Source: a virus
Reading direction: 5' to 3' (one strand)
Length of the DNA: 64,000 bases
IMG/VR virus record: IMGVR_UViG_3300025096_000009
Span: 15,618 to 79,617 of that record
The translations under genes and the position numbers were made by a program. Each line of letters begins with the position of its first letter. Positions within the stretch are counted from its first letter, which is position 1. The notes below the pieces were generated by a model that worked only from the letters and a program-made list of their open reading frames with translations, searched no databases and was not told where the DNA came from. This document shows, in pieces, positions 13,827-50,446 of the stretch.

Positions 13827-16706
13827 ATGTATATTGGGAATGATCTGCAAGTTGCGGAATCAGGCAACAAAATTATTGATGATATAAGCTCTAGTTTTAA
13901 CGGGAGTACAACATCATTCGCGTTGCTGGTAGGTGGGGCAGCTCCTGTTCCTTTTCCAATCAATACTCAGCAGATTTATATATCGGTCAACGGTGTACTT
14001 CAGGAACCAGATCCAACTGGTAGCGCAGGTTTTAAACTATTAGGAAATAATATTGTATTCAGTTCAGCTCCAGCTAATGGACATGCTTTCTTTGGTGTCA
14101 TCTTATCTGGTGCAGATTACGTCACAGTAGGTACGGAGTTCCCTGCAGGCAGTGCTACCGCTCCCTCTATTACCTTTGGAAACGACGACAACACAGGACT
14201 ATATTCTGTAACTGGTGGAACAGTAGGTTTCACTTCAGATGGTGTTCAAACCTTCACCATGGATAGTAATGGTTTTAACTTCCCTGATAGTAAGAAAGTA
14301 AACCTTGGATCTTCGTCGGATTTACAGCTTTATCATGACGGCTCCAATTCATACATAGAGGAAGCAGGAACAGGTAGTTTGTTTCTCCGAGCAACACCTT
14401 CTATTGAATTTAGAAAGGCAGGTGGTACTGAAAAGATGCTCTATGCGGAGCCTGATGCTCAAGTAGAACTCTATTATGACAACACCAAGCGTTTTGAAAC
14501 CACTAACACAGGAACAAATGTTATCGGAATTCACGTAGACGATGGTGCTACACACGACGGAGATGTAACGTTTACTGGTGCAGCTGCTAGTGTTACGTGG
14601 GATAAGTCAGCAGATGATTTGATATTTAATGACAATGCAAAAGCCGCATTCGGTACTTCATCGGATTTAAATATCTATCATGATGGATCTCATAGCTATA
14701 TAGACAGTACTGGTACAGGTTATCTTCTTATACAAGACTCAGGAAACATATATATCAGAACTAATGATTTCCGTGTTCAAACATCAGGTGGCAGTGAAAC
14801 ATGTATTACCTGTAGTGCAAACGGAGCAGTATCACTTAATTTTGACAATAGCACAAAATTTGCCACTACTTCAAGTGGTGCAACGATAACAGGAGACCTA
14901 ATTGTTGGTCAAATAACATCATCAGGTAACATAACGTCTAATGGTACGTACTTAACATTAACGGGTAATAGTTATAACGCATGGTGGGACAAAGCTGCTA
15001 GTGCTCTTGAGTTTCAAGATAATGCTAAGGCAACTTTTGGGACAGCAAATGATCTTCAAATTTATCATGATGGATCTAACTCATATATAAAAGATGCAGG
15101 TACAGGTAATCTTTATATTTTCTCCGAAAACTTACGCATAGAAAATGCAGATGGAAGTGAGTCTTATATAGAAGCTAATGTTAATGGGTCCGTAGAACTT
15201 TATTACGACAACTCAAAGAAATTTGAGACAACTTCAACGGGGGCTAAGGTCTCTAATGTTCTGGAAATAAATAGTAATGGAACTTCAATTGCTGAAAATA
15301 ATTTAAACTTCGAACCTTCTGGAAATGTTTATATTGATCATAGGACTACTTCACAAGATATAATTTTTAGGATGTCTAATTCTTCGGCGTTAGACACAAC
15401 AGCATTAACAATAAAAGCTGACGGGTCTACTACACATCCCGATGCTATTAAGTCTAAATGGGGTGCTGGAGATGATCTTCAAATCTACCATGATGGATCT
15501 AATAGTTATGTTCATAATGATAATGGATCTGGTAACTTCTATATACAAGGCGATGCTATTAGACTCAGATCAAAAACTGGTACTGAAGATTATATAGTAG
15601 CTAATCATAATGGATCCGTAGAACTCTATTACGATAACGCTAAAACTTTTGAAACAGGTACAACAGGAGCAATCCTTAAAGGTGGTAATACAGGCGCAGC
15701 AACTGAATTACAAATTTTTGGTAATGAAGGTCAACGCGGTATATTACTGTTGGCTGCTGATGATGGAGATGATAATGCAGATTATTGGCATTTTGAAGCA
15801 GGAACTGATGGAAACTTAAATATTCAAAATTACAGTGGAGGTTCTTGGGAAAATAGTTTACTTTTAAAAAGTGGTGCAGCCGTAGAACTCTATTATGATG
15901 ACGCTAAGAAGTTAGAGACAACTTCAGCAGGTGCAACTGTAACAGGTAGTCAAAACTCAGCAGTTGAACTTAGGATAGAAAATACTAATAATAGTCAAAA
16001 TGCTGCAATTGCAAAATTAAGCCTACATGGTGGTGATGCTGCAAACCAAGGACCAATAATAGAATTAGATAGAAATGGTGCTTATCATCAAATAGAAGAA
16101 GATGCTTCTGGAAATTTAGATTTTAGTGATAACGGCACAGTTAAATATATAATGGAATCCGATGGTGATTTCCAAATATGTGATGGCGATCTAATCATAG
16201 GAACTTCTGGTCACGGTATTGACTTTAGTGCTACAGGTGGTCCTACTGGTACCGGGGCTTCAAGTGATTCAGAAGTTCTTTCGGACTATGAACATGGGAC
16301 ATGGGTTCCTCTTTTAAGGAATGGAACTAATGAGATTACCTATACAACTGGTAATGCTTCTACAAAGTTTACCTACGTAAAAATTGGTAGATTAGTCCAT
16401 TTAACTTTTTGCTTAAACAATGAAACTACAGCAGGAACTACAGGTGGTAGTAGCAGTTTCCAAATACTAAATGCTCCTTTTGCTCCCGCTGCTGAGAGGA
16501 TTATAAGTACACAAGTGCTTTGGTATGCTACTGGATTGCGTATAAACCAAACACCTATCTTTATGCACCTTCATACCGCTGGTAATTTTGAGGCATATAG
16601 AATGGTTTCTGCTACTGGTGGTTATACTTCAAATAATTGTGAAGTTGAGCAGGTCGGAGCTAGTAGTTATATGTTCTGGCGTATGAGTTATGAAACCAGT
16701 TCATAG
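13827..16706 (+). CDS. Long tail fibre (cyanophage type)
   Basis: DDISSSFNG N-terminus, repeated DLQIYHDGSNSY and VELYYDN units, GTSGHGIDFSA..DYExGTWxP tip. Confidence 0.85.
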   Translation: MYIGNDLQVAESGNKIIDDISSSFNGSTTSFALLVGGAAPVPFPINTQQIYISVNGVLQEPDPTGSAGFKLLGNNIVFSSAPANGHAFFGVILSGADYVTVGTEFPAGSATAPSITFGNDDNTGLYSVTGGTVGFTSDGVQTFTMDSNGFNFPDSKKVNLGSSSDLQLYHDGSNSYIEEAGTGSLFLRATPSIEFRKAGGTEKMLYAEPDAQVELYYDNTKRFETTNTGTNVIGIHVDDGATHDGDVTFTGAAASVTWDKSADDLIFNDNAKAAFGTSSDLNIYHDGSHSYIDSTGTGYLLIQDSGNIYIRTNDFRVQTSGGSETCITCSANGAVSLNFDNSTKFATTSSGATITGDLIVGQITSSGNITSNGTYLTLTGNSYNAWWDKAASALEFQDNAKATFGTANDLQIYHDGSNSYIKDAGTGNLYIFSENLRIENADGSESYIEANVNGSVELYYDNSKKFETTSTGAKVSNVLEINSNGTSIAENNLNFEPSGNVYIDHRTTSQDIIFRMSNSSALDTTALTIKADGSTTHPDAIKSKWGAGDDLQIYHDGSNSYVHNDNGSGNFYIQGDAIRLRSKTGTEDYIVANHNGSVELYYDNAKTFETGTTGAILKGGNTGAATELQIFGNEGQRGILLLAADDGDDNADYWHFEAGTDGNLNIQNYSGGSWENSLLLKSGAAVELYYDDAKKLETTSAGATVTGSQNSAVELRIENTNNSQNAAIAKLSLHGGDAANQGPIIELDRNGAYHQIEEDASGNLDFSDNGTVKYIMESDGDFQICDGDLIIGTSGHGIDFSATGGPTGTGASSDSEVLSDYEHGTWVPLLRNGTNEITYTTGNASTKFTYVKIGRLVHLTFCLNNETTAGTTGGSSSFQILNAPFAPAAERIISTQVLWYATGLRINQTPIFMHLHTAGNFEAYRMVSATGGYTSNNCEVEQVGASSYMFWRMSYETSS

Positions 16707-49208: not shown

Positions 49209-49802
49209 ATGACTTATCGAGTACGCCGCAAGTTTACAAGTTCTACATTTTATATTGATGATCAAATCTGCAAAATCTGGTTTGATCCTGAGAGAGAATA
49301 TCGAAAAGGCTATTGGTTTTGGAAGGTTGGTTTTGCTGTTGGTAAATCTAAACGTCAATTAAATGATTGGTTTAATGAAAGAAATAATAAAAGGACTCGT
49401 CATATTCATAAGAAGATAACTGGCCGAACTGGTATGAAAGCTATTCGTAAAGGCTTTCAAGAAGTATTGAAATTACGCTGGATTGTTCAACCAGGAGACT
49501 GTATAGAGCTGGATTGCACATCCGGAGATCCTGAGAGGCAGTTTCATGCTTGGAGCCGCTGGCATAGATATCATCCCGAATGGGTTATTAATTATGAGAA
49601 GAAAATCTTTTATTGGTATCGTCCTCCTTATTACGATGACACAATTTGGAAGTCATTTAATATAGTTCCTATTACACCAGTTGATTGGGCAGCTAACACT
49701 GCTGGCGATGCTTATTTCAATTGTTTTCGTGCTTATCCTAAAGGAGGGGAATTATCCATGGAGCAAACTCTTGAGTTAGTTGGTCAGGTACTTCCTAGTT
49801 AA
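49209..49802 (+). CDS. Hypothetical protein
   Basis: 197 aa, W/R-rich. Confidence 0.55.
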   Translation: MTYRVRRKFTSSTFYIDDQICKIWFDPEREYRKGYWFWKVGFAVGKSKRQLNDWFNERNNKRTRHIHKKITGRTGMKAIRKGFQEVLKLRWIVQPGDCIELDCTSGDPERQFHAWSRWHRYHPEWVINYEKKIFYWYRPPYYDDTIWKSFNIVPITPVDWAANTAGDAYFNCFRAYPKGGELSMEQTLELVGQVLPS

Positions 49803-49992
49803 AATGACTTTTGATAATTACAGATCTATCGATCTATATCCACATAAGTGTGGAGTTAATCCCATTGCTCATGGATATCTAAGTAAGTACAAACCTTGGT
49901 ATTTTGATGGTAAATCAGTTTGGTGGGGCAGGAGTTATGAATTACGTAGTGAGGCTGAAGAAGCCGCATTAGTTTTGAAAGACAAGGTATAG
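49780..49992 (+). CDS. Hypothetical protein (start probably MTFDN, 49804)
   Basis: ORF following the previous stop. Confidence 0.5.
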   Translation: MVRYFLVKMTFDNYRSIDLYPHKCGVNPIAHGYLSKYKPWYFDGKSVWWGRSYELRSEAEEAALVLKDKV

Positions 49993-50010
49993 CAAGTTTA
50001 ATATATCCGG

Positions 50011-50120
50011 TGGGCCGCAGAAGAACAGTGTCAGGCCCTGGGGGGAGGTGTAGTTTTTACTGTTTCCTGCACCTAGCGAACGAGAGCCTTGCCGAGAGAC
50101 AGCGGTGGGGCTACTCCCCT
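50011..50120 (+). ncRNA. Unassigned structured RNA (hairpin plus three-way junction, possible kissing loop)
   Basis: GC-rich island; stems complete only with G-U on +; preceded by TTGAAA-N18-TAATAT. Confidence 0.65.
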
Positions 50121-50166
50121 TCAATATCTTAAGATTTTCTTTACATTTAATGTATCCGCATAAACT

Positions 50167-50194
50167 GTATCAATGACTACTAAATAGTTATAAT
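50167..50194 (+). promoter_or_regulatory. NtcA box next to a -10 element
   Basis: GTA-TCAATGAC-TAC (50167-50180), 8 nt before TATAAT (50189-50194). Confidence 0.65.
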
Positions 50195-50220: not shown

Positions 50221-50361
50221 ATGAGGCGTCTTACTTATCGCGGCATCGGATACCAGAAACCTGAAGTTCTAGTTGATAGAAAGACTGTTTCGGATGAAAA
50301 GCATACTTATCGTGGAATTAAATTTCACTATGAAGCTATGAAGAAAAAAGTAGTTGCTTAA
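50221..50361 (+). CDS. DUF4278-like 46-aa peptide (not in ORF track)
   Basis: MRRLTYRGIGYQ...HTYRGIKF: doubled TYRG motif; GGAG RBS. Confidence 0.8.
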   Translation: MRRLTYRGIGYQKPEVLVDRKTVSDEKHTYRGIKFHYEAMKKKVVA

Positions 50362-50415: not shown

Positions 50416-50446
50416 AAAGCCTCACTGTCATAGGTGGGGCTTTTTT
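50416..50446 (+). terminator. Intrinsic terminator
   Basis: AAAGCCTCACT-GTCATA-GGTGGGGCTTT-TTT. Confidence 0.75.

Follow-up and report, generated by a model that had tools for sequence, protein, structure and literature searches.

A predicted structured RNA gene of uncultured cyanophages carrying the CyVA-1 kissing-loop module in a permuted scaffold

A short stretch of cyanophage DNA had been described as encoding an RNA of its own, assigned to no family, and the question it raises is whether such an RNA exists, to what it is related, and whether it acts as a molecule in its own right or on behalf of the gene that follows it. The window analyzed here, a stretch of 64,000 nt, covers positions 15,618 to 79,617 of the 79.6-kb IMG/VR record IMGVR_UViG_3300025096_000009. 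It was recognized as cyanophage DNA by its content of genes for psbA, T7-type DNA polymerase A, primase, Asp/Arg hydroxylase, and a 46-aa DUF4278 protein. The G+C content of the element forms a local peak (0.55, against about 0.35 to 0.40 around it), and sequence conservation among homologous loci ends at both of its borders. Judged from the comparative sequence data given below, the element is a genuine, tightly folded structured RNA gene on the + strand (Table 1). Just upstream of it lies an ORF of 197 aa (window 49209 to 49802), corresponding to phrog_38455 and without a Pfam family. This ORF is conserved across the lineage, is ∼47 to 49% identical over ∼139 aa to proteins of the T7-like cyanophages S-SBP1, S-RIP2, and KBS-P-1A, and carries the invariant motifs RQ(L/I)NDW and WHR(Y)HPEW.

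The 197-aa ORF served as the search anchor, and the element was found in 8/8 related viral loci. A covariance model made from nine copies gave 67 matches in loci reached via the anchor protein, all but one of them full-length. The conserved core supplied a degenerate DNA pattern, by which at least 119 loci were retrieved from IMG/VR and at least 120 from JGI metagenomes; the model matched 78 of the 79 searched in the former and 78 of the 80 searched in the latter. In total, at least 223 covariance-model matches (67 + 78 + 78) were obtained from viral and metagenome contigs, representing 163 distinct sequences and full-length except for three that ended at contig ends. Each contig carried a single copy, the long contigs measuring 78 to 87 kb, and all matches came from uncultured S-EIV1-like cyanophages of ∼80 kb in marine and fresh waters. 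The psbA cluster contained phage and metagenome members only.

Among 185,579 species genomes, only six true matches were found, all on contigs of metagenome-assembled genomes (MAGs) in noncyanobacterial bins. Since the degenerate pattern recovered 45/56 independently found copies, the lack of the RNA in cyanobacterial genomes carries some weight. The six contigs (L090, L098, L095, L100, L103, and L091) had been binned as Bacteroidetes, Acidimicrobiales, Phycisphaerae, Planctomycetaceae, and Oceanicoccus MAGs, and they are probably misbinned phage contigs. One contig, PBAY01000001.1 (29,650 bp), is equal in base pairs to an IMG/VR virus record bearing an equally scoring copy of the RNA. The capsid protein adjoining the RNA in one subgroup shared 68% identity with its counterpart in Synechococcus phage S-EIVl, the sole cultured relative. 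When the whole S-EIVl genome was searched with filters off, no copy of the RNA was found (best score, 14 bits); therefore, the RNA is dispensable for the lineage. A blastn search of 50,697 cultured-phage records with three family members returned nothing but one chance match of 33 nt, and an exact 26-mer from the RNA had no match in IMG/VR.

The deduced architecture comprises five helices, namely, P1, a 7-bp kissing pseudoknot, P2, P3, and P4. In two independent alignments, 97% of the cells held standard pairs, and compensatory changes were observed in all five helices, including the loop-loop helix. None of 500 shuffles attained the observed pairing and covariation values, and slid controls were only 42 to 54% paired. 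It is these comparative data that are decisive for the structure, folding energy by itself being weak evidence: the minimum free energy fold of the + strand reproduced P1 to P4 at -48.1 kcal/mol with a z score of -1.72, and the minus strand, with a z score of +1.04, showed no gain over shuffles. The assignment to the + strand, for which G-U pairs had been invoked in the preliminary description, follows from the G15.U68 pair that opens the pseudoknot, which is invariant, and from the tandem U.G/G.U in P4, which is near-invariant. The stems P1, P3, and P4 and the two complementary loops proposed there were recovered at the same coordinates and strand with support from covariation, as were the three-way junction and the kissing-loop contact, through P2, P3, P4, and the pseudoknot. 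The closing helix, drawn as GGGGGA/TCCCCT at 50041 to 50120, was retained in part. P2 is present at approximately this place, whereas A50046 had been assigned to both P2 and P3, and the pairing register of P2 is ambiguous inside the G-run. In most homologs the base of P4 is lengthened by ∼2 bp, seen as two extra pairs by mutual information, and mutual information gave no additional long-range pair beyond the pseudoknot. The purine-rich linker that had been noted turned out to be only semiconserved, and no site for its complement was detected elsewhere in the window.

Table 1. Positions of the RNA, its predicted structural elements, and adjacent features (window coordinates)
Feature	Position	Strand	Evidence or remark
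Promoter-like site TTGAAA-N18-TAATAT	-35, 49975-49980; -10, 49999-50004	+	Consensus scan
RNA as delimited by the covariance model	50009-50123	+	∼115 nt; cmsearch, 129.5 bits for the window copy
P1 hairpin, GGGCC/GGCCC	50012-50016/50034-50038	+	17-nt purine loop GCAGAAGAACAGUGUCA; 5/5 pairs covary; 99% of cells paired
Pseudoknot 5' strand, GAACAGU	50023-50029	+	Pairs with 50059-50065
P2, closing helix of the three-way junction	50041-50044/50116-50119	+	2/4 pairs covary; 91 to 93% of cells paired
P3 hairpin, AGGUGUAG/CUGCACCU	50046-50053/50067-50074	+	Loop UUUUU-ACUGUUU-C; 8/8 pairs covary
U-tract, candidate triple-helix third strand	50054-50058	+	In-register C/G-C co-occurrence
Pseudoknot 3' strand, ACUGUUU	50059-50065	+	Pairs with 50023-50029; covariation, mutual information
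J3/4 linker	50075-50084	+	Consensus urG.rA.yGA (100 representatives)
P4 hairpin	50085-50094/50103-50112	+	Conserved tandem U.G/G.U; 6 to 8 of 8 pairs covary
NtcA-like GTA-N8-TAC box and -10	GTA, 50167-50169; TAC, 50178-50180; TATAAT, 50189-50194	+	Conserved spacer
DUF4278 (IF17-like) 46-aa gene	50221-50361	+	Next gene after the RNA in the window

In the 7-bp loop-loop helix, double changes were seen in 5/7 pairs, with up to four pair types and 99.6 to 99.7% of the cells paired, and the strongest mutual-information pair of the whole alignment lies within it. The composition of the U-tract preceding its 3' strand was found to depend on the pseudoknot. The tract was UUUUU in all 127 sequences with A at both pseudoknot positions 16 and 17; UUUCU occurred only together with G-C at pair 17-66 (21/31 such sequences) and UUCUU only together with G-C at pair 16-67 (2/5), the sequences being related, so that the independent events are fewer than these counts. 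The tract runs parallel to the purine strand, as expected of a major-groove third strand. From this in-register three-way covariation we infer that the U-tract likely occupies the major groove of the pseudoknot as U.A-U and C+.G-C triples.

Covariation cannot separate intramolecular from intermolecular pairing, and the combination, in one RNA of a phage, of a three-way junction and two complementary loops is reminiscent of the phi29 packaging RNA (pRNA). The loops might therefore pair between molecules to give dimers or rings, as in pRNA or in ornate RNA-only assemblies. We consider this very improbable. The linker lengths fit an intramolecular contact, and in CyVA-1 (RF02965), the known motif most relevant here, a single closing stem encloses the two hairpins side by side. 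In addition, relatives encode a large terminase (S-EIVl annotation), and the pRNA model (RF00044) gave no match at E ≤ 10.

A promoter of its own with a start near 50011 had also been claimed for the RNA. The proposed site was found by the scan, and the position of its -10 hexamer, though not its -35, proved to be conserved. A TANNNT hexamer lay 9 to 10 nt before the start of the model in 85 of 103 distinct flanks, compared with 0 to 5 at other offsets. This fixed -10 is kept in three upstream contexts: what precedes it is an ORF on the + strand, the case in the window, or an ORF on the minus strand that diverges from the RNA, or a LAGLIDADG gene. Given the fixed distance between the box and P1, the RNA very probably starts at about 50010 to 50012, with the first bases of P1. 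At several loci (L032, L039, and others), the box, ∼10 nt ahead of the RNA, has the sequence TATTAT on the strand of the RNA and TATAAT on the opposite one. The latter precedes a divergent 76-aa ORF, ∼25 nt from its start codon, and the box may be a shared bidirectional -10 element. At the other end, no U-tract, hairpin, or terminator was conserved after the 3' strand of P2 across homologs. The first intrinsic terminator in the window, a strong one at 50416 to 50443, lies beyond the DUF4278 gene, and for these two reasons the RNA could form the leading portion of a longer message.

With a fold that sets in right at the 5' terminus, the RNA might protect a message from the 5'-end-dependent decay that depends on RNase E or J, or it might be a processing "punctuation" mark that is cut, like a tRNA, by a structure-specific RNase. 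Such a role appears unlikely, as conservation of the loop nucleotides exceeds what a plain stabilizer would require and the loci with a convergent downstream gene leave nothing to protect.

The neighboring genes bear directly on whether the RNA serves the next gene. In the group of the window, the DUF4278 ORF lies 60 to 110 nt downstream of the RNA, and at the homologous loci read, the spacer between them keeps a TAAAC-N-GTA-N8-TAC box 8 to 9 nt ahead of a -10. The DUF4278 gene thus appears, from these conserved motifs, to have its own promoter bearing an NtcA-like box. The layout of GTA-N8-TAC and -10 resembles that in the NtcA-repressed promoters of the host genes gifA and gifB. In a G+C-rich S-EIV1-like group, LAGLIDADG endonuclease ORFs lie ahead of the RNA, and after it come a CP12-like ORF, a 270-aa ORF, and a gp80-like fiber gene; 20 to 75 nt separate the RNA from the CP12-like ORF, and here too a -10-like box occupies the gap. 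Small CP12-like ORFs following the RNA (L115, 494 to 706; L125; L158; and others) are each preceded by TAGCAT or TACAAT. The one in L115 has a C-terminal CP12 motif (Pfam PF02672) scoring barely above the cutoff, and the others were grouped with it by BLAST clustering. By crude ORF calls, a same-strand gene, mostly DUF4278 or CP12-like, begins within 350 nt of the RNA at about 72 of 105 loci, and a convergent gene (thyX or Asp/Arg hydroxylase) lies downstream at about 30 of the 105 (∼30%), in two cases only 8 nt away.

The variable next gene, the apparent promoters of these genes, and the convergent loci together make an obligate riboswitch for the next gene unlikely, and an obligate 5'-untranslated-region role is excluded for part of the RNA family. 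The earlier judgment, that a riboswitch for that gene is improbable, was therefore upheld. A weaker form of the idea is that the RNA acts in cis as a leader, either a riboswitch-like sensor or a processive antiterminator, for the DUF4278/IF17-like or CP12-like gene and then for psbA, its cue being a metabolite or RNA polymerase. The pseudoknot-and-triplex core proposed here is reminiscent of the ligand pockets found in such small riboswitches as SAM-II and preQ1-II. The RNA begins at the transcription start, the terminator of the window sits between the DUF4278 gene and the hydroxylase and psbA genes, and glutamine riboswitches are the usual regulators of DUF4278 genes in the hosts (PMC6212724). 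Against these points, the DUF4278 and CP12 genes each retain a -10 box of their own, situated after the RNA and ahead of the start codon, about 30 loci have a convergent gene downstream, and the classes of downstream gene share no common pathway. Neither a conserved expression platform nor a competing pairing that involves the ribosome-binding site was found, and when the RNA was folded together with the leader that follows it, no alternative structure reached significance (z -0.75). Because most loci have a close same-strand gene with no conserved terminator intervening, we leave the leader hypothesis a minor but real share of the probability.

In the G+C-rich S-EIV1-like group, at L158 (3282 to 4464) and ∼30 similar loci, two overlapping LAGLIDADG-type ORFs lie between the capsid gene and the RNA. 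The family match was to PF03161 (E = 4.5e-7 in L129), and the end of the ORFs overlaps the -10 box of the RNA. The RNA gene may be a homing target of these endonucleases. Their position directly upstream in one phage group, together with the compact pseudoknotted junction, would also suit a self-cleaving ribozyme or the fragment of a mobile intron. This was considered the least probable of the alternatives, as no ribozyme or intron model matched, the core motifs of hammerhead, twister, pistol, and hatchet ribozymes were not found, the RNA interrupts no gene, and the endonuclease genes are absent from the group to which the window belongs.

Searched against Rfam at gathering score, the whole window gave no match, and an 801-nt scan on the element gave none at E ≤ 10, CyVA-1 included, so that no family is reached at its threshold. 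The description of the RNA as unassigned to any known family was nevertheless revised, because its kissing loops are those of CyVA-1 set in a permuted scaffold. In the genome search, positions 40 to 66 of the RF02965 model aligned to P1 (window 50012 to 50038) with 14 bits. On the P1 hairpin of homologs, the model scored 24 to 25 bits in 2/13, which is subthreshold, and the gathering score of 41.4 bits was not reached by the window RNA or by any of the homologs tested. The 17-nt-loop hairpin characteristic of CyVA-1, GAAGGAGAaCGACGUCA, is present, with the P1 loop of the window corresponding to it and a family consensus of g.AGAAGArC.ry G.CA. Also present is its partner, a hairpin whose GUUUU-rich loop pairs with the P1 loop in a covarying 7-bp pseudoknot. 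The CyVA-1 scaffold, in which one closing stem of an RNA of ∼77 nt encloses the U-loop hairpin first, is not found in the phage RNA. On these sequence features the RNA is a permuted, extended variant on the CyVA-1 kissing-loop module and not a member of RF02965, the likeness lying below the Rfam cutoff and within the two loops.

The CyVA-1 motif was discovered by Weinberg et al. in 2017 and mentioned there only in passing (PMC5737381). Its Rfam type is "Gene; sRNA," and a metatranscriptome preprint reported its detection in halite cyanobacteria (10.1101/761684). Two copies in viral contigs were examined, L357, with 43 bits by Rfam, and L369, identified by pattern and pairing only. Their 7-bp loop helices are GAGCGAC/GUCGCUU and GAACGAU/AUCGUUU, and the U/C rule is obeyed in both. 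The L357 copy (1330 to 1560 of a 66-kb viral contig) is flanked on both sides by a hairpin and U-run that are terminator-like by eye, a layout that looks like a free-standing sRNA gene. The loop pattern of canonical CyVA-1 hit 13 contigs in IMG/VR, of which 12 were apparent chance matches that reached no Rfam cutoff and in which no partner loop was seen. In 151 genomes from the phylum of a MAG titled Luteolibacter sp., RF02965 gave a single match, below the cutoff and without loop-loop pairing.

Taken as a whole, the evidence favors a stable phage RNA that is transcribed on its own and whose kissing-loop/triplex core serves as a recognition surface, a reading to which we assign a probability of roughly 0.6. 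The conserved -10, a few bases before P1, probably serves to start transcription of the host type, and the transcript folds into the 5' hairpin P1 and then the P2/P3/P4 three-way junction. The loops of P1 and P3 join as the 7-bp kissing pseudoknot, and the U-tract of the P3 loop would settle in the groove of that helix through the base triples proposed above. A conserved partner, be it a small ligand or a protein of the host or the phage, would recognize the core thus locked. The RNA would act as a stable molecule itself, possibly as a stand-in for host CyVA-1, and not as a switch for a neighboring gene.

A bolder extension, which we put forward tentatively and regard as rather improbable, is that the core common to host CyVA-1 and the phage RNA is a binding pocket or docking surface for some conserved factor of cyanobacteria, which the phage copy hijacks or titrates during infection; alternatively, the core could be a new aptamer for ligand sensing, mounted in several scaffolds. 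If true, this would add an RNA mimic for host takeover to the IF17-like and CP12-like metabolic brakes of these phages.

Several known RNAs invite comparison with the phage RNA. The glutamine riboswitches RF01739 (type 1, glnA RNA) and RF01704 (type 2, Downstream-peptide) are likewise cyanobacterial or cyanophage elements upstream of DUF4278/IF17-like genes, and they are also pseudoknotted multistem RNAs (PMC6212724). Neither matched at E ≤ 10, their conserved core sequences are absent, and the phage RNA is twice their size and lies upstream of the DUF4278 gene's own promoter or, elsewhere, before CP12-like or convergent genes. The phi29 pRNA shares a size of ∼120 nt, its own promoter, the three-way junction, and the two complementary loops, but its loops pair between molecules over 4 nt, whereas the contact in the phage RNA spans 7 bp and is probably intramolecular. 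Small self-cleaving ribozymes and group I introns were rejected, there being no Rfam match and no CUGAUGA...GAAA core in the junction. The manA, wcaG, and PhotoRC-II RNAs (Weinberg 2010, PMC2864571) are likewise structured RNAs of marine cyanophages, and they lie close to metabolic genes of host origin. Unlike the phage RNA, they are 5'-untranslated-region elements, and none of them had a gathering-score match anywhere in the window.

With CyVA-1, the phage RNA shares a hairpin loop of the form GAAG(G/A)AGA(A/G)C-NNN-GUCA, a partner loop of GUUU(U/C)U followed by 7 nt (GUUUU being the opening of the CyVA-1 partner loop), and a 7-bp loop-loop helix opening with G.U. In both, a U-to-C change in the U-tract goes with a G-C pair in the pseudoknot, and both are present in viral contigs. 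The two differ in how these loops are mounted. CyVA-1 has 77 nt, with the U-loop hairpin first and both hairpins adjacent inside a single closing stem, whereas in the phage RNA the purine-loop hairpin P1 stands outside and 5' of the junction, which holds the U-loop hairpin and an extra arm, P4, of 10 to 12 bp with its conserved tandem G.U. They also differ in frequency, canonical CyVA-1 being rare in IMG/VR (2 copies by the loop pattern) and the permuted phage form numbering at least 119. CyVA-1 has been an orphan motif since 2017, and its core can now be described as a kissing helix of 7 bp that covaries and probably has a base-triple strand. In the phage RNA this core is mounted on another scaffold, and in that form it abounds in a cyanophage lineage that is widespread and has hardly been cultured, where it adjoins genes throttling host nitrogen and carbon metabolism. 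The retention of the module in permuted scaffolds suggests that the functional site lies in the loops rather than the stems, and the loops offer a concrete target for pulldowns, ligand screens, and structural work.
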